DNA from: a virus
Lineage: Duplodnaviria; Heunggongvirae; Uroviricota; Caudoviricetes
Length of the DNA stretch: 16,160 bases
Virus record (IMG/VR): IMGVR_UViG_2512047041_000002
Location: 1-16,160 of that record
Reading direction: 5' to 3' (one strand)
Shown: one piece after another, positions 4,483 to 16,160 of the stretch
How positions within the stretch are numbered: the stretch's first letter is position 1
Layout of the letters: each line of letters opens with the position of its first letter
Made by a program: the position numbers and the translations under genes
Notes under the pieces: model-generated
What the model was told of the DNA's origin: nothing
Databases searched by the model: none
The model's input: the letters and a program-made list of their open reading frames with translations, nothing else

Positions 4483-5076
4483 TCACTCTCCTTTGATGCG
4501 AATGCCAGCGGCACGGGAATCATTCCATCGCTTTACTTCTTCACGAATTACGTCAATGCATTCTTTCGAATCCATTAGGTAATCTTCATCAAAAAGACGT
4601 TCCTGTTCGTTTTCTATCGCAACAATGATTGCTTCAACTAACTTTTGTACCTGAGAACCACTTTCTAACTCTGCTATGCGCTTACTCCCATCCGAGATAA
4701 CGCCCTCGTAATACTCACGCTGCTCGTTGAGTTTTGATTTTGCCAACTCCAGTTGTTTTGTTAGTTCCGCAATACGGCAAACATCGTTGATACGCGTTTC
4801 CTCTAATGCGTTGATCTCATCCAACAATGCCAGCGCAACATTTGGATTAAAAGCAGCAATAAATTCAGCGTTTGCATAAGCCTGAACATCTGTTTCAACC
4901 AGGCAGTTAACATGACATTCTGCAATCACGCCACCGGGTTCTCCTTTCCATTTTTGGCAAACAAAAACTCCTGTTAAATTGCCGTGCTGGTTAACAGATG
5001 TATGCCCTACGATGTAGCTCCCTTTCGTTGCCTTTTCTGCCGCATCACGCAGTGCCTGATAATTAATTTCGCTCAC
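4483..5076 (-). CDS. Ead/Ea22-like early protein (197 aa, GTG start)
   Basis: GTG at 5074..5076 with GGAGGA Shine-Dalgarno, overlapping upstream stop (GTGA); MSEIN... N-terminus and ...AGIRIKGE C-terminus resemble Ea22-family proteins as I recall them. Confidence 0.55.
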   Translation of the reverse strand: MSEINYQALRDAAEKATKGSYIVGHTSVNQHGNLTGVFVCQKWKGEPGGVIAECHVNCLVETDVQAYANAEFIAAFNPNVALALLDEINALEETRINDVCRIAELTKQLELAKSKLNEQREYYEGVISDGSKRIAELESGSQVQKLVEAIIVAIENEQERLFDEDYLMDSKECIDVIREEVKRWNDSRAAGIRIKGE

Positions 5077-7776: not shown

Positions 7777-7909
7777 TTTTGGGAACTCCTGGCTGATTAA
7801 GTATGTCGATAAGGCGTTTCCATCCATCACGTAATTTACGTGTGATTCGTTCAAGTAAAGATTCGGAAGGGCAGCCAGCAACAGGCCACCCTGCAATGGC
7901 ATATTGCAT
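7769..7909 (-). CDS. cIII: CIII (46 aa; shorter than the 54-aa lambda protein)
   Basis: ATG at 7907..7909 with AGGAG Shine-Dalgarno; MQYAIAGWPVAGCPSESLLERITRKLRDGWKRLIDILNQPGVPKNG* matches lambda CIII as I recall it up to PKNG, then stops. Confidence 0.85.
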   Translation of the reverse strand: MQYAIAGWPVAGCPSESLLERITRKLRDGWKRLIDILNQPGVPKNG

Positions 7910-7970
7910 GGTGTGCTCCTTATTTATACATAACGAAAAACGCCTCGAGTGAAGCGTTATTGGTATGCAT

Positions 7971-7996: not shown

Positions 7997-8261
7997 AAAG
8001 AAGATTTCCAATAATCAGAACAAGTCGGCTCCTGTTTAGTTACGAGCGACATTGCTCCGTGTATTCACTCGTTGGAATGAATACACAGTGCTTCTCTGTG
8101 CTAAATAATTAAATCATATTCTGATTTGGTTAGTTTATACGCACCTCCTCTGGTGTAATATGCAAATCTGTCTTTGCTTCCATCAGAATTGTATACCCAC
8201 CCACCAAATGGAAAGATAGTGAACCGCCCCGGGTTTCCTGGAGAGTGTTTTATCTGTGAAC

Positions 8262-9152
8262 TCAGGCTGCCAGATCATCGTTTCCGATGGAAGCATAATA
8301 AGCTTTTTCTGCTTCTGCCGGAGGAGTATGGCCCAGCCTTTCCAGCAATCGTCGATTGTTATACCAGTCCACCCACGTGAGTGTGGCCAGTTCCACTTCT
8401 GCACGGTTTTTCCAGCTCTTACGGTGTATTACCTCCGCTTTGTAAAGACCATTGATGCTCTCCGCCATCGCGTTGTCATACGAGTCGCCTGTACTTCCTG
8501 TTGATGCCAGTAATCCGGCTTCCTTAAGCCGCTGTGTGTAGGCCAGCGATACATACTGAGAACCTTTATCACTGTGATGGACCGTGCCGGACGGTCGACG
8601 GGCCCATAACGCCTGCTCCAGTGCATCCAGCACGAATGTCGTTTCCATGGACGATGAGACCCGCCACCCCACGATGTATCCGGCAAACACATCAATGATG
8701 AACGCCACATAGACGAAGCCCCGCCATGTGCTGACGTAAGTAAAATCAGCCACCCACAGCTGGTCAGGTCGTTCTGCCACGAACTGACGGTTTACGCGGT
8801 CGCCTGCGGCAACGGCTTTCCGGCTGATGGTCGTACGGACCTTTTTACCCCGGAGAACACCGGCAAGTCCCATAACCGCCATGAGACGTGCCACAGTGCA
8901 TCTGGCCACTCTGATACCTTCCCGTAACAACTGACGCCAGACTTTACGCACACCGTATACCTTGTGATTTTCATCGTATACGCGCTGTATCTCTTTCTTC
9001 AGCCAGTCATCGCGCTGCGCACGGGCACTGCGTTTATCCGGATGATGTCGCTGTTGCTGACAGTGGTAATACGTTGACGGGGCAATATGCAGTTCGCTGC
9101 ATAGCGGTCCGACCCCGTACTGCTCACGCAGCTTATCCAGCAGTGGCATCAT
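8262..9152 (-). CDS. IS629-like transposase OrfB (296 aa, DDE catalytic domain)
   Basis: IS3-family OrfB-like sequence (…[31 protein letters not shown]…[11 protein letters not shown]…) in the -1 frame relative to orfA. Confidence 0.85.
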
Positions 9153-9475
9153 TTTTTCCAGAGGCGGTCGAACTCCGCCTTCGCAAAATAAGCGGAAGCC
9201 TGGCGAAGGATATCGTTACTGCGGCGCAGTTCACGATTTTCACGTTCCAGCTCTTTCAGACGCTGACGTTCAGCGGTGGTGAGCCCTCCATCACCGCCCC
9301 CGGTATCCCGCTCATGCTGGCGAACCCAGACACGCAGAGTCTCCGGCGTACAGCCAATCTTTGGAGCAATGGAACAAATTGTCGCCCATTGTGAGTCATA
9401 TTCGCCCTGACTTTCCAGAACCATACGGACTGCCCGTTGACGGACTTCGGGGGAAAAACGAGTATTTTTAGTCAT
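9149..9475 (-). CDS. IS629-like transposase OrfA (108 aa, HTH)
   Basis: [30 protein letters not shown]... with C-terminal leucine-zipper-like region; ends in an A6 run (GGAAAAAATGA) at the orfA/orfB overlap. Confidence 0.85.
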
Positions 9476-9622
9476 CCTGTTTACCTCTTTCTCAGGAAGT
9501 TTAGTCTCCAGGATTCCCGGGGCGGTTCATCTCCAGAACTTGGCAGGATTACAAGTTCATACGGAGAACTTGCACGAGCAGCAACAAAGCCACTTCGATA
9601 TGTTGAACAGACAGGGCGATCT

Positions 9623-10030
9623 ATGCCAGCCATTAGCACTCTTGAGAATGGCCTTCATCCAGTTTTAGAGAGCGCATTGTCTGGCGCTTTTAGAACTACT
9701 GGCACTATCGCAGGGTTCTCTGGAGGAGGCGTTATTGGAGCAATAGCGGGTGGCGCTGCAGGTGGGGCAATTGATGCAATGGCAAAAGGAGCGATAGCGA
9801 AATTATCCGCAACTAGAAGCGGTCGTTACGCTATTGAAAAGGCTGTTCAAGAGGCAACAAAGGCAGTTAAGGTTGGGGCAAGTGATGGCGCATTAGCGGC
9901 GGCGGAACGCAGATTTATGGCAAATAAGGCCGCCGTAAAAGCAATACGCGAGGCACTAGGAAACGAAGAGTTCCAGCGTTTAGCAAGAGCTGGAATTGTG
10001 GCATCGCTAAGCGGAATGGCACAGGAGTAA
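9623..10030 (+). CDS. Glycine-zipper protein (135 aa), possible membrane-active/bacteriocin-like; 5' end may be truncated by the IS
   Basis: TIAGFSGGGVIGAIAGGAAGGAIDAMAKGAI GxxxG-repeat segment followed by Ala/Lys-rich amphipathic helices; weak RBS at the first ATG and the frame stays open back to the IS boundary. Confidence 0.4.
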   Translation: MPAISTLENGLHPVLESALSGAFRTTGTIAGFSGGGVIGAIAGGAAGGAIDAMAKGAIAKLSATRSGRYAIEKAVQEATKAVKVGASDGALAAAERRFMANKAAVKAIREALGNEEFQRLARAGIVASLSGMAQE

Positions 10031-10360
10031 TTAGTCATCCATGGATGGATTGAGCTTATCTCGTGTTGATGTGGCAATTTTCCCAACATTTTTCAACCAA
10101 GATTTTAAGAAGGATATGTCGTCCTTAATATCATGAATATCCTCATTCTTTATACGATCAACCTTATCCTCTAAGCTCTCTATAGAACGCTCAATGCTAG
10201 ACAGAGAGATTTTTAAGTCCCCTTGCTCACGTTCCAGTGAGGATTTGAGAGCACAATATTCGTTTTCTAGAATTCCTATTTTTTTTGTTAGAGAGTGCAT
10301 TCGATACTCATACACCAAACCAGAAACGACTAATGCAGCCAACAGAAACCATTCAAGCAC
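10031..10360 (-). CDS. Membrane-anchored coiled-coil protein (about 110 aa, GTG start)
   Basis: GTG at 10358..10360 preceded by AAGGAGG; N-terminal hydrophobic helix LEWFLLAALVVSGLVYEY followed by heptad-like SLEREQGDLKISLSSIERSIESLEDKVDRIK; stop abuts the convergent glycine-zipper stop (TAATTA). Confidence 0.5.
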   Translation of the reverse strand: MLEWFLLAALVVSGLVYEYRMHSLTKKIGILENEYCALKSSLEREQGDLKISLSSIERSIESLEDKVDRIKNEDIHDIKDDISFLKSWLKNVGKIATSTRDKLNPSMDD

Positions 10361-10390
10361 ACCAACCTCCTTAGTTTTGAGCAGGATACC

Positions 10391-10756
10391 ATGAAAAAAG
10401 TTAACATTGGAAACGTACCAAAGATGCTCGTTCCGCTCTTTGAGAGCGGTACAATTGTGTGTTGTAGAGACTTTCCAGAATGGCAACGCCTGCATCAAAA
10501 ACTTGGCGTTGACGTGCAGGACTCGGATGCCAACGGAGCGTCTCATACAATGAGCAGCGAGAATGGTGTTTTGCATGTGATAGGTGTGTTCAATGGCAAA
10601 CTATCTACTATTGCCCATGAGTGCGCTCACATGGCATTCGATATCTGCTCAAGGGTCGGTGTTGATGTTGAACCAGGAAGAGCCAATGAGACTTACTGCT
10701 ACTTAATGAGCAGGCTTGTTGAGTTCTGCGAGCGACATATCAAAAAGCCGGAGTGA
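10391..10756 (+). CDS. Small HExxH-motif protein (121 aa), possible ImmA/IrrE-like metallopeptidase-fold protein
   Basis: ATG at 10391 with AGGA 4 nt upstream; motif TIAHECAHMAFD (HExxH) in the C-terminal half; two Cys pairs. Assignment by motif only. Confidence 0.45.
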   Translation: MKKVNIGNVPKMLVPLFESGTIVCCRDFPEWQRLHQKLGVDVQDSDANGASHTMSSENGVLHVIGVFNGKLSTIAHECAHMAFDICSRVGVDVEPGRANETYCYLMSRLVEFCERHIKKPE

Positions 10757-10764
10757 CCCGGCTT
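10745..10764. terminator. Stem-loop between convergent genes (possible bidirectional terminator)
   Basis: AAGCCGG-agtgac-CCGGCTT overlapping the HExxH gene stop; flanked by A-run on one side and T-rich sequence on the other. Confidence 0.3.
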
Positions 10765-10769
10765 GATTA

Positions 10770-10949
10770 TTACTTTTTGCTGTCTGGAGTTCGCTTATCC
10801 AATACCCAGCCATGACCTGGCTTTGTTGTTGGTGGAAGCCTTTCGTTGTCCTTGACGGTGGCAAAATTGTCTTTCTTACCGCCGCGTGGGCCAACTTCTT
10901 GGTATATTCCGCCGTTTTTTCCTGTGTTTTCACCTGGTTTTTTCGCCAT
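10770..10949 (-). CDS. Small Gly/Lys-rich hydrophilic protein (59 aa)
   Basis: ATG at 10947..10949 with GAGGT Shine-Dalgarno; MAKKPGENTGKNGGIYQEVGPRGGKKDNFATVKDNERLPPTTKPGHGWVLDKRTPDSKK; TTGACT -35-like hexamer upstream. Confidence 0.5.
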   Translation of the reverse strand: MAKKPGENTGKNGGIYQEVGPRGGKKDNFATVKDNERLPPTTKPGHGWVLDKRTPDSKK

Positions 10950-11087: not shown

Positions 11088-11624
11088 TCAAACAACCCAC
11101 CAGTTTGCCTGATTGGATGCCAGCCTTGCAGTTTTTATGGAATTAATTATGCCATGCTCAAGAGCCTTGTTAGCATCCAAAATGGTCGAGTCTGCTATCA
11201 GGGATGCCCACCTAATATGGGTTCCGATGTCGATATTGAACGTCTCAACGAAGCGATCAAGATCGTTATCGAGGCATTTCCCGTACTCTCTCAATCTGGC
11301 ATGGTCGGCGGCTGGGGAGGCAAAGCACCATAATAGAGGATGTAACAGGAATCTTGATAATGGGTTTGCGAAACGTTCTGAGCCAGCCAGGAAAACGATA
11401 TTAGCTATGGATTCAACATTGCTTATGTTGTGAGTTCTAACGGTAACAGGGAGTGACTTAAGAAAGTTATACGCAGTAAAGCCAGCGGCAGTTTCCCCTC
11501 CCTGACTTGATATATGGATATTTAATTCAGTTGCGCCTTGAGATAATGCGGTGAGACAGTGGTTCTGAAGTTGCCCAACAGTGGCAGTGTTAACGGGGCA
11601 TAAGAAATGAATTGTGTGCAGCAT
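11088..11624 (-). CDS. ClpP-fold (S14-family-like) serine peptidase homologue (178 aa), non-structural context
   Basis: By-eye alignment to E. coli ClpP blocks: ISSQGGETAAGFTAYNFL vs INSPGGVITAGMSIYDTM; ESIANIVFLAGSERFANPLSRFLLHP vs [29 protein letters not shown] (Ser and His aligned); C-terminal ALEHGIINSI vs AVEYGLVDSIL. Start ATG overlaps the Mnt-like stop (TAATG). Confidence 0.6.
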   Translation of the reverse strand: MLHTIHFLCPVNTATVGQLQNHCLTALSQGATELNIHISSQGGETAAGFTAYNFLKSLPVTVRTHNISNVESIANIVFLAGSERFANPLSRFLLHPLLWCFASPAADHARLREYGKCLDNDLDRFVETFNIDIGTHIRWASLIADSTILDANKALEHGIINSIKTARLASNQANWWVV

Positions 11625-11872
11625 TATTTTTCATCCTTAGCATACATGGTCTTTAGCGTCTCAAGTAGCGCCTCTTTGAATTTATCAGCTTCTTGGTTAG
11701 CGAATCCTTCAAGTGAGCGAGAGCCATCAAGATTATCAACATGTTTTTGAAGGATAAGCACGATCTCTGAGTTCATTGATCTGCCGTTTTTATCCGCTTC
11801 TTGCTGAATGCGTTTCTTTAAATAGTCTGGAATCCTAATCCCCAATGGACTGATATCTCTTGCACCTTTCAT
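11624..11872 (-). CDS. Mnt-like ribbon-helix-helix repressor (82 aa)
   Basis: ATG at 11870..11872 with GAGGAG Shine-Dalgarno; MKGARDISPLGIRIPDYLKKRIQQEADKNGRSMNSEIV... shows the RHH pattern of P22 Mnt (NGRSMNSE) plus a C-terminal extension; divergent from the Arc-like gene. Confidence 0.75.
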   Translation of the reverse strand: MKGARDISPLGIRIPDYLKKRIQQEADKNGRSMNSEIVLILQKHVDNLDGSRSLEGFANQEADKFKEALLETLKTMYAKDEK

Positions 11873-11894
11873 TTCTCCTCCTGCACGCTGTGCG

Positions 11895-11967
11895 TAGCTA
11901 CACAGTGTAGGCAAAAAATTTTTGACTTTAAATAAACACGGTGTAGTATTTAGTTATCACGGTGTAG
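11895..11967. promoter_or_regulatory. immI divergent promoter/operator region
   Basis: Perfect palindrome CTACAC-A-GTGTAG (11898..11910); two direct copies of CACGGTGTAG (11937..11946, 11958..11967) 21 bp apart; TTGACT (11922..11927) with TAGTAT 16 bp downstream as a candidate rightward promoter overlapping the repeats. Confidence 0.55.
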
Positions 11968-11981
11968 CAAGTGAGGTGGAA

Positions 11982-12122
11982 ATGAAAGTTAGAGACATCG
12001 CTCCATTAGGGATTCGTATCCCGCCAGAGATTAAAGAAAAATTGAAGGAAAAGGCTAAGGAGGAGGGCAGGTCTTTAAATTCAGAAATAGTGAAGCGTCT
12101 TATTCGCAGCCTAAAAAGTTGA
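11982..12122 (+). CDS. Arc-like ribbon-helix-helix repressor (46 aa)
   Basis: ATG at 11982 with GAGGTGG Shine-Dalgarno; [46 protein letters not shown]; the RHH strand [11 protein letters not shown] is nearly identical to the Mnt-like protein; the 66-aa track ORF is an upstream extension. Confidence 0.7.
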
Positions 12123-12170
12123 AGCCCCAACTGCTGGAACAGTCGGGGCTTCGGTATCAACAAATCAGAT
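12113..12170 (-). ncRNA. Candidate sar-like antisense RNA opposing the antirepressor RBS (hypothetical)
   Basis: Minus-strand TTGACT (reverse complement of 12200..12205) and AATAAT (12175..12180) with a 19-bp spacer; downstream a 12-bp imperfect hairpin (12121..12152) followed on the minus strand by AACTTTTTAG. Confidence 0.25.
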
Positions 12171-12183
12171 AGGAATTATTGAT

Positions 12184-13213: not shown

Positions 13214-15130
13214 ATGAGAGACATTACAGCCAATGTGATCGTATCGATGCCTTCGCAACTCTTCACTATGGCGCGTTCTTTTAAAGCCGTAGCTAATGGC
13301 AAAATTTATATCGGTAAAATTGACACTGATCCTGTAAATCCAGAAAACCAGATTCAGGTCTATGTGGAGAATGAAGACGGTTCTCACGTTCCTGTTTCGC
13401 AACCAATAATCATTAACGCTGCTGGATATCCTGTATATAACGGACAGATTGCCAAATTCGTTACCGTGCAAGGCCATTCTATGGCTGTTTATGATGCGTA
13501 TGGTGCGCAGCAGTTCTATTTTCCTAATGTGCTGAAGTATGACCCTGATCAACTACGGCAGCAATTAGAAGACCCAGATGGAGCGAATAAATACCCAAAA
13601 CTTCAGATAGCAAGATGGAGAGACAGTTATGATGTAAGAGGTTGGGGGGCTATTGGTGATGGTGTTCATGATGATACATCAGCTCTATCAGAATTACTTT
13701 CTGTTGCAACAGGTGGTGAAAAGATAGATGGGCGAGGGCTTACTTTTAAAGTATCAACTCTTCCAGATGTCAGTCGATTTAAAAATGCTCGTTTTTTATT
13801 TGAGAGAATACCGGGTCAGCCTCTTTTTTATGCTTCTGAAGATTTTATCCAGGGAGAGTTATTTAAAATTACAGATACACCGTGGTACAACGCCTGGACG
13901 CAGGATAAAATGTTTGTATATGACAATGTCATCTATGCGCCTTTTATGGCTGGAGACCGCCATGGTGTAAATAACCTCCATGTTGCATGGGTTCGCTCAG
14001 GAGATGACGGGAAGACCTGGACAACGCCGGAATGGCTTACAGATTTACATGAAAACTATCCCACAGTTAACTATCACTGCATGAGTATGGGGGTTGTCAG
14101 AAATCGCCTTTTTGCTGTAATTGAGACGCGGACCGTGAGAGGAAATAAACTGCAGGTTGCAGAGTTGTGGGATCGCCCAATGAGTCGCAGCCTTCGCGTT
14201 TATGGTGGTATAACGAAAGCAGCAAATCAGCAAGTCGCTTATATTCGCATTACTGATCACGGATTATTTGCTGGTGATTTTGTCAACTTCTCAAACTCTG
14301 GTGTTACAGATGTTACCGGGAATATGACGGTGACTACTGTTATTGATAAAAATACCTTTACAGTTACGACGCAAAATACCCAGGATGTGGATCAGAATAA
14401 CGAGGGTAGATACTGGAGTTTTGGCACATCATTTCACTCGTCACCATGGAGAAAAACCAGTCTTGGAACTATTCCTTCTTTTGTTGACGGAAGCACTCCT
14501 GTTACTGAGATTCACAGTTTTGCGACGATTAGCGATAACAGTTTTGCTGTTGGCTACCATAATGGTGATATTGGTCCACGCGAGCTTGGGATACTCTATT
14601 TCTCTGATGCTTTCGGTTCTCCTGGTAGCTTTGTTCGCAGACGCATACCTGCAGAATATGAGGCGAATGCATCTGAGCCATGTGTAAAATATTATGATGG
14701 CATTCTGTATCTGACGACCAGGGGGACATTAAGTACTCAACCCGGTAGTTCATTGCACAGAAGCTCTGATTTAGGTACATCATGGAATTCTCTTCGCTTC
14801 CCAAATAATGTTCATCACTCAAACCTTCCTTTTGCCAAAGTTGGCGATGAGCTGGTTATTTTTGGCAGTGAGCGCGCATTTGGTGAGTGGGAAGGAGGAG
14901 AACCTGATAACCGTTATGCAGGAAATTATCCAAGAACATTTATGACCAGAGTTAACGTCAATGAGTGGAGTCTGGATAATGTAGAGTGGGTTAATGTTAC
15001 TGATCAGATTTATCAGGGCGGAATAGTTAACTCTGCGGTTGGTGTTGGTTCAGTTTGTATCAAAGACAACTGGCTGTACTACATTTTCGGTGGGGAAGAC
15101 TTTTCTAAACCCATGGAGCATAGGGGATAA
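13214..15130 (+). CDS. Tailspike: P22-like head-binding N-terminal domain plus glycosidase-type receptor-binding domain with Asp-box (BNR) motifs; likely the 5' part of a frameshifted longer gene
   Basis: First ~115 aa ([11 protein letters not shown]...[38 protein letters not shown]...[15 protein letters not shown]...NVLKYDPDQ) closely resemble the P22 gp9 N-terminus as I recall it; [14 protein letters not shown] motif; two Asp-boxes SGDDGKTW and SSDLGTSW. Confidence 0.8.
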
Positions 15131-16160
15131 CAACAGAAAATATCCTTATGTTCACGATGGTCACCCGGCTGATTTGTATTGTTTCAGGGTGAAAATTAAA
15201 CAGGAAGAATTTGTTTCAAGGGATTTTGTCTACGGAGCCACTCCTAACAGAACGCTTCCTACTTTTATGTCGACGTCAGGCGTGAGGACGGTTCCTGTAC
15301 CCGTTGATTTCACAGATGATGTTGCCGTCCAGTCACTGACTGTCCATGCAGGTACATCAGGACAAGTTCGCGCGGAAGTCAAACTTGAGGGTAATTACGC
15401 CATTATTGCGAAGAAAGTACCGTCTGATGATGTTACCGCTCAGAGATTAATCGTTAGCGGCGGTGAAACAACGTCTTCAGCAGATGGTGCAATGATAACG
15501 TTGCATGGTTCCAGAAGCAGTACTCCACGTCGCGCGGTATATAACGCACTCGAACATCTTTTTGAGAACGGAGATGTTAAACCTTATCTTGATAATGTAA
15601 ATGCTCTTGGTGGTCCGGGAAACAGGTTCTCGATAGTTTATCTTGGCTCCAATCCTGTGGTTACCAGTGACGGAACATTAAAGACAGAGCCGGTCTCTCC
15701 TGACGAAGCATTGCTGGATGCCTGGGGTGACGTCAGGTATATCGCTTATAAATGGCTGAACGCTGTCGCTATAAAGGGGGAAGAAGGGGCGAGGATACAT
15801 CATGGTGTAATCGCGCAGCAACTTCGTGATGTTCTTATTTCTCACGGACTCATGGAAGAAGAAAGCACAACATGCCGCTATGCCTTTCTTTGCTATGACG
15901 ATTATCCCGCAGTATATGATGACGTCATTACTGGCCAAAGGGAAATGCCGCTGACTGATAATGACGGGAGCATCATTGTTGATGAGGATGATAATCCAGT
16001 GATGGTAATAGAAGACATCATTGAGCGCGTTGAAATAACGCCAGCAGGATCTAGATGGGGGGTCAGACCTGATCTCTTATTCTATATCGAGGCAGCATGG
16101 CAGCGCAGAGAAATGGATAAGATAAAAGCTAGGTTAGACTTAATAGAAGGGAAGCACTAA
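15039..16160 (+). CDS. Tailspike C-terminal region with S74-type intramolecular chaperone domain signature; probably continues 13214..15130 in another frame
   Basis: Frame open from 15027, overlapping the end of the upstream ORF; contains TSDGTLK (Ser-x4-Lys spacing as I recall for the autocleavage site of such domains) and [11 protein letters not shown] motif; track start is a TTG with no RBS, so an independent start is doubtful. Confidence 0.55.

Follow-up and report, generated by a model that had tools for sequence, protein, structure and literature searches.

SieA, the exclusion protein of P22, blocks DNA injection by P22-like phages, and the mutations that escape it lie in gp16 and gp20 (PMC10883804). 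The gene for it, sieA, is present in only about one in three P22-like phages (Leavitt et al. 2024, PMC10883804). SieA proteins (types A, B and C) are 162-213 aa long with 3-4 membrane helices. Their gene converges on gene 16 in the interval that separates genes 16 and 9, at the end of the ant moron that borders gene 16, and has the promoter PsieA upstream; in P22 the order is gene 16, convergent sieA, PsieA, the hkcC reading frame and orf59a. PsieA has been described as only 'putative' (PMC10883804), and sieA together with just 85 bp of upstream DNA gave full exclusion (Leavitt et al., PMC10883804). For the gp16 ejection protein, a place in the inner membrane, within the conduit that delivers P22 DNA, has been proposed.

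Another small inner-membrane superinfection exclusion protein encoded by a moron is gp15 of HK97 (Cumby et al. 2012, as described in PMC3594210). It is expressed from the prophage, its moron lies in an operon of virion genes, it blocks entry of DNA of its own phage type, and its specificity is set by the conduit-forming protein of the phage.

In the slot that sieA occupies in P22, HK620 carries hkcB, whose product is labelled 'unknown function' in the epsilon34 paper. A literature search with hkcB and its protein accessions returned nothing relevant and no experiment on HkcB. Here we describe hkcB in a 16,160-nt stretch of viral DNA (IMG/VR record IMGVR_UViG_2512047041_000002), referred to throughout as the window. 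An initial annotation of the window had singled out a plus-strand 'glycine-zipper' ORF and a convergent, membrane-anchored minus-strand ORF, and suggested that the two form a toxin/immunity, exclusion or abortive-infection module.

Results

The prophage and its insertion sequence

The window contains the right end of a degraded P22-like prophage of the HK620/CUS-3 type, with a K1 endosialidase tailspike; the features around the junction of interest are given in Table 1. The insertion sequence (IS) is bounded by 25-nt terminal inverted repeats (8220-8244 and 9505-9529), is named 'IS3 family transposase' by PGAP and contains a match to Rfam RF01497 at 9078..9194; we take it to resemble IS629/IS1203. 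Its left flank is formed by early-left genes (cIII, kil, Sak4-like and SSB). A target-site duplication of the element was looked for and none was found, the flanks being GATAG and TCTCC, and this absence fits an IS-associated deletion. It is clear that the element and its associated deletion account for the loss of everything from the early-left genes to the last 166 codons of gene 16. The ant moron is placed between gene 16 and the tailspike gene, and hkcB is its first gene. The hairpin beyond hkcC lies where the HK620 annotation has 'tORF59A, bidirectional terminator'.

Table 1. Features of the window around the junction of gene 16 and hkcB
Feature	Coordinates	Strand	Remarks
IS3-family insertion sequence	8220..9529	-	1,310 bp; cuts gene 16
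IS orfB	8262..9152	-	programmed-frameshift ALIL pseudoknot (orfA/orfB)
IS orfA	9149..9475	-	programmed-frameshift ALIL pseudoknot (orfA/orfB)
3' remnant of gene for P22-gp16-family DNA ejection ('DNA transfer') protein	9530..10030	+	last 166 codons and stop; pseudogene
Gly/Ala-rich 'glycine zipper'	9713..9796	+	GFSGGGVIGAIAGGAAGGAIDAMAKGAI; internal segment of gp16 C-terminal region
hkcB	10031..10360	-	109 aa; GTG start; PHROG 5962; anchor, coiled coil and C-terminal motif
hkcB upstream region ('PsieA socket')	10361..10470	-	Shine-Dalgarno 10366..10372; P22 PsieA match 10391..10421
Socket sequence preceding cassette ORFs			TGGTATCCTGCNCAAAACTAAGGAGGTTGGTGTG
hkcC	10391..10756	+	121 aa; unknown function; divergent from hkcB, 30 nt between start codons; PHROG 1365
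Bidirectional terminator-like hairpin	10745..10764	both	between hkcC and orf59a homologue; terminator scan, both strands
orf59a homologue	10770..10949	-	leftward immI/mnt arm of ant moron; 98% identical to P22 orf59a
ClpP-family protease-like gene	11088..11624	-	leftward immI/mnt arm of ant moron
Arc/Mnt-family repressor gene	11624..11872	-	leftward immI/mnt arm of ant moron

The plus-strand ORF is a remnant of gene 16

The plus-strand ORF (9623..10030), initially read as an independent gene, comprises the last 135 of the 166 surviving codons of a gene for a protein of ~711 aa. Its ATG at 9623 is an internal methionine codon of the gp16-family gene and not a gene start; homology to intact prophages and to HK620 starts exactly at 9530, immediately after the right inverted repeat of the IS, and the reading frame is open upstream into the IS as far as a TTG at 9437. 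The remnant shows 100% identity with the 3'-terminal part of the intact 711-aa 'DNA transfer protein' gene of AR_0017, 99.8% identical to the 'P22-gp16 family' gene of TW14425 and 93% identical to HK620 gp16, and it matches PHROG 770 (E 1.2e-27) over profile positions 539-666 of 668. By homology it belongs with the P22 gp16 ejection proteins. A full-length member of that family is an ORF of about 580-870 aa that follows genes 7 and 20 in the late operon, whereas the remnant has 166 codons only; compared with gp16 of P22 and HK620 (Pfam PF26808, PHROG 770), 23% of the gene is left, the N-terminal and central parts are gone, and there is neither an upstream gene 7 or 20 nor a late promoter. RefSeq/PGAP treats the identical stretch in E. 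coli N32 as a pseudogene ('DNA transfer protein, incomplete, missing N-terminus'). The 'glycine-zipper ORF' is a dead gp16 stump, a pseudogene remnant and no functional family member, and it is a short ORF because insertion of the IS cut the gene of a 711-aa virion protein. Short ORFs at the ends of IS elements should be compared with full-length homologues before small genes are called.

The Gly/Ala-rich stretch that drew attention to this ORF is indeed present, as a part of gp16. A comparable composition is found in gp16 of HK620, CUS-3, L007-L011 (loci of our comparison set), Bas106 and phiSG1. Positions G532 and P546 of P22 gp16, at which SieA is escaped (PMC10883804), align at or beside the stretch, in an alignment that is weak (21% identity). 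A PDB profile search gave no solved relative of full-length gp16.

A toxin/immunity or other two-gene module would consist of two intact small genes, inherited and expressed together, and here one partner is an IS-generated fragment. The annotation that proposed the module had itself named clear homology to a housekeeping phage protein as evidence against it, and the match to the gp16 ejection-protein family (PHROG 770) is such a homology; the proposal must be given up. As submitted, the pair is an ordinary finding, hkcB having already been catalogued as a hypothetical gene and its plus-strand partner being an IS-truncated virion gene.

hkcB and its product

The product of the minus-strand ORF is 98-100% identical over all 109 aa to HkcB of HK620 (AAK28903; PHROG 5962; RefSeq WP_000895335.1). 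The window gene itself is 98.2% identical to HK620 hkcB and 50% identical to the CUS-3/epsilon34 homologues. The PHROG 5962 profile is matched end to end (E 1.9e-61, residues 2-109 of 109), and the gene lies convergent with and adjacent to gene 16 of a P22-like phage, as expected of the family. HK620 hkcB shares the position and orientation seen in the window, the stop abutting gene 16 and the divergent hkcC; there is no difference of substance between the two hkcB loci, except that gene 16 of the window is truncated. The Shine-Dalgarno sequence, AAGGAGG, stands 5 nt before the GTG. When the C-terminal 42 codons of hkcB were compared with four diverged loci (dS up to 1.4), dN/dS was 0.12-0.24; for gp16 it was 0.04-0.10. 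At this dN/dS, hkcB is a real gene under purifying selection.

The N-terminal membrane helix and coiled coil ascribed to this ORF at the outset were both recovered. Residues 1-18 of HkcB form the hydrophobic segment (Kyte-Doolittle 1.9-2.2) and the rest is a charged helix, with heptad periodicity reaching 6-7 of 8 a/d positions; the AlphaFold2 model is a single helix spanning residues 2-103 (pLDDT 87). The conserved C-terminal motif is FLKSWLKNVGKIATSTRDK. Around the hydrophobic core, all eight homologues compared have no K/R before it and 2-3 after it, and the positive-inside rule predicts an N-out/C-in topology.

An exhaustive HMM search among 1.8 billion representatives gave 10 matches to HkcB, the last three of which are long coiled-coil proteins. 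HkcB is a tiny orphan family, confined to P22-like phages; within E. coli it is present in 153 of 5,426 complete genomes, K1 meningitis-type strains included. Pfam, NCBIfam and PADLOC scans of HkcB gave coiled-coil noise only (ASRP, XseB and Rad50; DpdH at 16 bits), and in a PDB profile search nothing but GCN4, keratin and designed coiled coils came up, at E >= 0.017. When the AlphaFold2 model was compared with BFVD by Foldseek there were 0 matches, which is to be expected of a single helix.

The junction between gene 16 and hkcB

The adjacent stops (TAATTA) noted at the outset are present exactly as described, with 0 nt between them: the TAA of gp16 occupies 10028-10030 and that of hkcB is the reverse complement of 10031-10033. 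The same arrangement, in which hkcB converges on gene 16 and the two stops are 0-4 nt apart, was seen at 10 of 10 loci, namely HK620, CUS-3 and eight further loci (from L007-L015) that reach down to homologues of ~30% identity. Conservation of the abutment over this range goes beyond chance. The terminator-free character of the junction is likewise confirmed, but not as the sign of a module for which it had been taken; in P22, antiterminated late transcription must cross the ant moron to reach the tailspike gene, and this read-through explains the lack of a terminator between gene 16 and hkcB. At CUS-3, TW14425, L007, L008, L014 and L015 the hkcB-like gene is the last of a leftward operon that starts with the Arc/Mnt repressor gene, which speaks for expression in the lysogen in these lineages.

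The gp16 C-terminal module next to hkcB also occurs in phages without any moron (Bas106, Louie/Huey/Dewey and phiSG1) and, since it does, the moron with hkcB is probably accessory. The module was considered as a feature specific to hkcB carriers and rejected as such, being present in the moron-less phages and also with other cassettes; therefore any functional coupling of the gp16 C-terminus with HkcB is no more than putative.

hkcB lies behind the upstream region of sieA

Upstream of hkcB, 108 of 110 nt are identical to the region upstream of P22 sieA, an identity that covers the annotated PsieA (31/31 nt), the Shine-Dalgarno sequence and the GTG start; in the stretch from which Leavitt et al. 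expressed sieA, 84 of 85 nt agree. The GTG bounds this identity to P22, the nucleotide homology starting exactly at the hkcB/sieA start codon. Judged from these alignments, hkcB uses, base for base, the same promoter, ribosome-binding site and start codon as sieA, the exclusion gene of P22, and this is the new observation here. In a simple promoter scan of the window PsieA was not scored. A promoter-like site inside hkcB on the plus strand (10245..10273) is not conserved in P22 and was given no weight. The divergent hkcC is 99% identical at the amino acid level to an unannotated P22 reading frame (L006, 4862..5224); it is annotated in HK620, and according to the epsilon34 paper hkcC is among the genes of the ant moron of P22.

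Behind this upstream region, which we call the PsieA socket, different P22-like prophages have either sieA or another, unrelated cassette, of which there are at least five; the cassettes (at least six, sieA included) come from prophages of E. coli and Salmonella, and 6 of the 6 seen encode membrane or secreted (envelope) proteins. In K99B and PEC301 the sieA/hkcB slot holds a lipoprotein and a 2-TM protein. In strain p11A it holds a soluble 140-aa protein, but not by way of the socket, so that the slot is not exclusively envelope-related. A 109-aa socket protein of MB50 with HkcB-like architecture was tried as a distant HkcB; the hhalign probability was 11%, and it was treated as unrelated.

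Comparison of HkcB with described proteins

HkcB shares with SieA its location: hkcB, too, fills the slot that separates genes 16 and 9 and converges on gene 16, with an apparent PsieA upstream. Both are proteins of the inner-membrane type in which the most conserved motif is near a C-terminus predicted to be cytoplasmic, and the two genes were never found together (sieA in 41 phage records, hkcB in 8, no overlap). HkcB differs from SieA in sequence and in number of helices. BLASTP gave no alignment to P22 SieA at E<=100, the motif FxRYPxEAxxFNK, present in SieA of P22, HS1 and L026, is absent from HkcB, and HkcB has one helix and a coiled coil in 109 aa. The searches yielded no sequence, motif or fold link between HkcB and SieA or any defence family.

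HK97 gp15 (PMC3594210) is unlike HkcB in its unrelated sequence (YebO family), in its long-tailed phage and in its target, the tape measure region. On paper the Rz-type i-spanins have an HkcB-like architecture, with a membrane helix at the N-terminus and a long coiled coil after it. Spanins, however, are encoded in the lysis cassette with an o-spanin, are transcribed late and have a periplasmic coiled coil (N-in/C-out), whereas hkcB belongs to the ant moron, is encoded on the other strand from the late operon, and has charges that predict C-in. HkcB was rejected as an i-spanin on location and predicted topology, and the one spanin-related match, to the Rz1-like LysC model of NCBIfam (E 0.05), is noise.

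Discussion

Quite possibly, by analogy with the gene whose place it takes, HkcB is an inner-membrane-anchored exclusion protein expressed in the lysogen, a functional analogue of SieA that is not homologous to it. The exclusion function suggested at the outset is strengthened for hkcB alone, through its sieA slot, promoter, ribosome-binding site and start codon; it does not extend to the pair. A PsieA-type promoter would give constitutive HkcB in the lysogen, the protein would insert in the inner membrane through its N-terminal helix, with the predicted N-out/C-in topology, and the coiled coil would likely form an oligomer; when P22-like phages superinfect, the conserved C-terminal motif might then disturb their conduit of gp16/gp20 ejection proteins. 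Against a SieA-like reading, predicted C-in topology makes nearly all of HkcB cytoplasmic and so keeps it from that part of the conduit which lies in the periplasm. [quoted passage not shown]

Alternatively, HkcB could be a lysogenic-conversion or phage-internal factor, for example a modulator of the envelope or of stress, or a tether acting on the immI (Mnt/Arc/Ant) circuit; we regard this as unlikely, though readily conceivable. Many kinds of host-benefit proteins are encoded in morons (PMC3594210), hkcB would be co-transcribed with mnt in several lineages, and it is intact and 100% identical to the common allele although the prophage has lost all virion genes. The family nevertheless occurs in P22-like phages alone, its gene abutting gene 16 in every case, which would be unexpected for a general host-fitness factor, and the only characterised socket cassette is an exclusion protein.

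Improbable, but consistent with a coiled coil and conserved motif predicted to be cytoplasmic, is a role of HkcB in prophage defence once the phage DNA is inside the cell, either as an abortive-infection trigger or by Tai-like capture, by the tethered coiled coil, of new ejection proteins (e.g. the gp16 C-terminus) of a superinfecting or heteroimmune phage. Tai proteins, which have been tested as superinfection-exclusion candidates, block tail/needle assembly, including that of P22 and HK620 (PMC11364771), and the gp16 C-terminus that accompanies hkcB is always of one type, that of HK620/CUS-3, an association that could be mere physical linkage. HkcB, on the other hand, has no homology to Tai or to PADLOC models, and sieA, which shares slot, promoter, Shine-Dalgarno sequence and start codon with hkcB, acts at DNA entry; induction of the own prophage would also be hit, unless, as pure speculation, convergent late transcription silences hkcB in cis.

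That the two ORFs are a small membrane-active toxin/immunity or microcin-like pair is scarcely credible: only composition, a Gly-rich hydrophobic stretch beside a single-pass membrane protein, speaks for it, while the plus-strand ORF encodes a piece of a 711-aa virion protein and is short only because of the IS, its counterpart in all intact relatives is full-length gene 16, and toxin-antitoxin and defence model scans of both ORFs gave no match. We likewise attach next to no probability to a chance or antisense minus-strand ORF, with conservation of the DNA or RNA where gene 16 ends as its cause; both gene ends do lie within one conserved nucleotide block (9821..10152, 83% to CUS-3), but synonymous changes dominate in hkcB and gp16, the Shine-Dalgarno sequence is strong and the start conserved, the architecture is kept in homologues at ~30% identity, and an Rfam scan gave no match at the gene ends.

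[quoted passage not shown] The cassettes it carries would furthermore be new tools for probing the gp16/gp20 conduit, whose part in DNA delivery is poorly understood.

Origin of the plus-strand frame

The plus-strand frame (ATG 9623 to TAA 10028-10030) and the minus-strand frame convergent with it (10031..10360) were taken in the initial annotation as a small membrane-active pair, of a kind that is often a toxin/immunity, exclusion or abortive-infection module. The features described there are present: the plus frame contains the Gly/Ala-rich stretch GFSGGGVIGAIAGGAAGGAIDAMAKGAI at 9713..9796, the two stop codons are in contact, as TAATTA, and the minus frame encodes 109 aa, in which a highly charged, heptad-rich helix comes after a hydrophobic N-terminus. 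A toxin/immunity pair is effectively excluded, since the plus-strand ORF is, by its sequence, the truncated remnant of a virion protein gene, now a pseudogene. By megablast against complete E. coli genomes 9531..10400 matches P22-like prophages, in which it corresponds to the 3′ end of a 711-722-aa [quoted passage not shown], and 9530 is the exact left limit of homology to these prophages and to phage HK620. The match of the product to PHROG 770 is confined to profile positions 539-666 of 668; ATG 9623 is an internal methionine (...TGRSMPAIS...) in intact gp16 proteins. The junction is identical in the CSF isolate E. coli N32, where the PGAP annotation of the equivalent of 9530..10030 is a pseudogene, “missing N-terminus”. 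A similar Gly/Ala-rich composition was seen in all gp16 C-terminal regions of the HK620/CUS-3 type that were read. G532W and P546S, substitutions in P22 gp16 that give escape from SieA (PMC10883804), lie next to and inside the equivalent Gly/Ala stretch in an alignment that is weak (21% identity).

The DNA left of the IS3-family element, which looks IS629/IS1203-like, is lambdoid early-left DNA (cIII thermoregulator, kil, Sak4-like ATPase, SSB); deletion has therefore removed the genes for replication, lysis and the head, and most of those for ejection. No target-site duplication was found at the flanks of the element. In E. coli K99B gene 16 is likewise truncated by an IS (IS100) with the ant moron kept, so that the pattern of the window is seen twice, independently. 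The tailspike gene (13214..16160, +) encodes a CUS-3-like endosialidase, with a P22 head-binding domain and K1 endosialidase domains. It differs from the intact gene of E. coli AR_0017 (981 aa) by a 1-nt insertion (C at 15100), which splits it into ORFs 13214..15130 and 15039..16160 and so makes it a frameshift pseudogene.

Features of the window and cassettes of the socket
Feature	Location	Length	Description
IS3-family element	8220..9529	1,310 bp	25-nt terminal inverted repeats, orfA/orfB, ALIL frameshift pseudoknot
ALIL frameshift pseudoknot of IS	9078..9194 (-)		Rfam, above gathering score
Lambda cIII thermoregulator	7864..7922 (-)		Rfam, above gathering score
sar antisense RNA of immI region	12117..12182 (-)		Rfam, above gathering score
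Socket	10361..10421 (-); also P22 locus (L006) 4832..4892 and five other prophage loci (L023-L027)		PsieA -10 region, SD AAGGAGG, spacer TTGGT, GTG
SieA type A	P22; E. coli 39-kb circular record	164 aa	multi-pass membrane (predicted)
HkcB	window, HK620, AR_0017	109 aa	N-terminal helix + coiled coil (predicted)
Unnamed cassette	ETEC L4_E1441	75 aa	two membrane helices (predicted)
Unnamed cassette	STEC384	129 aa	N-terminal signal peptide (predicted)
Unnamed cassette	MB50	109 aa	N-terminal helix + coiled coil (predicted)
Unnamed, unannotated cassette	APEC IMT5155	62 aa	two hydrophobic segments (predicted)

hkcB and sieA share their expression signals

The minus-strand frame is a real gene, hkcB, named in 2001. 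Its product is 98% identical to that of HK620 hkcB and around 50% identical to the homologues of CUS-3, epsilon34 and SEN22; it matches PHROG 5962 end to end, is labelled “hypothetical protein” in RefSeq and is encoded in 153 of the 5,426 complete E. coli genomes. AlphaFold2 models it as a single continuous helix (residues 2-103, mean pLDDT 87).

In P22 it is sieA that converges with gene 16, and the annotated PsieA, an unannotated frame matching hkcC, and orf59a all lie beyond it, away from gene 16; hkcC and 59a are in the P22 ant moron gene list of the epsilon34 paper (PMC2629481). The hkcC and orf59a of the window match the P22 frames at 99% and 98% identity. At the nucleotide level, homology to P22 (97%) begins at 10358, the hkcB start codon (a GTG, with a 5-nt spacer after AAGGAGG), equivalent to the sieA start codon. 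Upstream of the two genes 108 of 110 nt are identical; the annotated PsieA is conserved at 31 of 31 positions and the upstream segment of the sieA construct of Leavitt et al., in which one chromosomal copy with 85 bp of upstream DNA gave full exclusion (PMC10883804), at 84 of 85. Past the GTG, identity falls to 39/110. With shared upstream and unrelated coding DNA, hkcB and sieA are thus two cassettes that alternate behind the same expression signals, and the 41 phage records with sieA do not overlap the 8 with hkcB. HkcB was rejected as a SieA homologue: the two give no BLASTP alignment, HkcB lacks the FxRYPxEAxxFNK motif, and it has one membrane helix compared to three or four in SieA.

Other cassettes at the same position

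Further socket loci were reached via short megablast matches to the SD region in other prophages, and their cassettes were translated from the common ...TGGTATCCTGCNCAAAACTAAGGAGGTTGGT-GTG. The start codon is the exact end of homology between these loci. At least six unrelated cassettes occupy the socket, convergent with gene 16, and 6/6 are predicted to be membrane or secreted proteins; the chance probability of this is near 1e-3, assuming that around 30% of proteins are envelope proteins. The MB50 cassette has no demonstrable relation to HkcB (hhalign probability 11%). PGAP starts the STEC384 cassette at a downstream ATG rather than the socket GTG (122 vs 129 aa), and the MB50 cassette upstream of the GTG (134 vs 109 aa).

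The slot is also filled where the socket is absent. K99B (L019, 3317..4987) and PEC301 (L021, 4219..4954) carry a 161-aa lipoprotein (MKKSLLIIPLLLVGC...) and, after it, an 81-aa membrane protein with two helices, adjoining the same gp16 C-terminal type as hkcB; HS1 carries SieA type B, and p11A one soluble protein.

Conservation of HkcB

Conservation is far higher in the C-terminal ~45 residues of HkcB than in the anchor and first half of the coiled coil. For the C-terminal 42 codons, compared with four diverged loci, dN/dS was 0.12-0.24 (dS up to 1.4), and for the neighbouring gp16 C-terminus 0.04-0.10; both frames are therefore under protein-level selection, which effectively excludes a chance ORF, and the conserved block across the two gene ends is therefore not an RNA or DNA element. 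Between HK620-type and CUS-3-type prophages 9821..10152 (the final ~70 codons of gene 16 and ~40 of hkcB) shows 83% nucleotide identity, and the remainder of both genes is too diverged for blastn, so the two C-termini are inherited as one mosaic unit.

A word-indexed search gave 26 cluster representatives of HkcB, and an exhaustive profile search, run over 1.8 billion representatives, only 10 matches. Two more distant members among these, P0030 and P0032, have no more in common with it than the architecture and a W-x-x-N-V-G motif at the C-terminus. No relatives beyond coiled-coil noise were found in Pfam, NCBIfam, PADLOC, PDB or BFVD. Two metagenomic proteins, P0022 and P0023, are identical to HkcB in the C-terminal 45 residues, with an unrelated N-terminal half and no obvious membrane helix; such chimeras suggest recombination inside an hkcB-like gene.

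Gene order in the ant moron

At all loci examined (HK620, CUS-3, AR_0017, TW14425, a Klebsiella aerogenes contig and metagenomic contigs L007-L015) gene 16 and the hkcB-like gene converge, their stops 0-4 nt apart. Most lineages have the hkcB-like gene at the end of a leftward operon starting with an Arc/Mnt-family repressor gene; the L007 operon is mnt then hkcB and nothing more. Genes 16 and 9 of P22-like phages are separated by the ant moron, a region in rapid flux through which P-late transcription passes to the tailspike gene (PMC2629481); gene 16 is without a terminator because this transcription must traverse the moron.

Bas106, Louie/Huey/Dewey and phiSG1 have the same gp16 C-terminal module without the moron, and hkcB is therefore dispensable for virion function. 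HkcB is always adjoined by the long HK620/CUS-3-type gp16 C-terminus, which is also found with other cassettes or none; the P22-type C-terminus adjoins SieA in both lineages read (P22, type A; HS1, type B). Hybrids with CUS-3 ejection proteins are still excluded by SieA. The tie of HkcB to the long C-terminus may be mere physical linkage.

The leftward mnt operon of the window also holds, distant from any head genes, a 178-aa ClpP-family protease-like gene (11088..11624, -; Pfam CLP_protease, E 2e-11) that is nearest to phage head-maturation proteases; it adjoins hkcB in L011 and is found in STEC384 and IMT5155. The AR_0017 prophage (L001) is 99.5% identical to the window apart from the mnt/arc intergenic region, where 11705..12115 (410 nt) and L001 11175..11802 (627 nt) give no blastn match; N32 has an annotated YlcI/YnfO-family gene at the site of the AR_0017 Arc-family gene. 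The best sigma-70-like match of the region (10245..10273, +; TTGAGA-17-TAGAAT, 10/12) lies inside hkcB on the opposite strand, towards hkcC, and cannot be kept in P22 because sieA occupies that place.

Discussion

The initial finding is largely accounted for by a pseudogene fragment of a virion protein and hkcB. HkcB would be made in lysogens, since it shares the DNA of the full-exclusion sieA construct and elsewhere lies in an mnt operon, and would be anchored in the inner membrane. In 8/8 homologues the hydrophobic core is preceded by no K/R and followed within 15 residues by 2-3, from which a cytoplasmic location is predicted for the coiled coil and the conserved C-terminal motif; the most conserved motif of SieA is likewise predicted to be cytoplasmic. 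We tentatively propose that HkcB most likely acts on incoming P22-like phages by interfering with their gp16/gp20 conduit; outside this phage group, HK97 gp15 (PMC3594210) is the nearest precedent for such a mechanism. A non-defence role, in conversion or regulation, seems rather unlikely. Defence after entry, by Abi or by Tai-like capture of ejection proteins, is improbable. Tai proteins, tested as exclusion candidates, turned out to block assembly (PMC11364771).

Neither the possession by hkcB of the sieA promoter, RBS and start codon nor a socket carrying a series of unrelated envelope proteins was found stated in the searchable literature. Together they turn a “hypothetical protein” into a specific, cheaply testable exclusion hypothesis. 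As proposed, HkcB would belong with the moron-encoded membrane exclusion proteins, an already known class; if it does interfere with the conduit, the job of SieA would be carried out by an unrelated protein.
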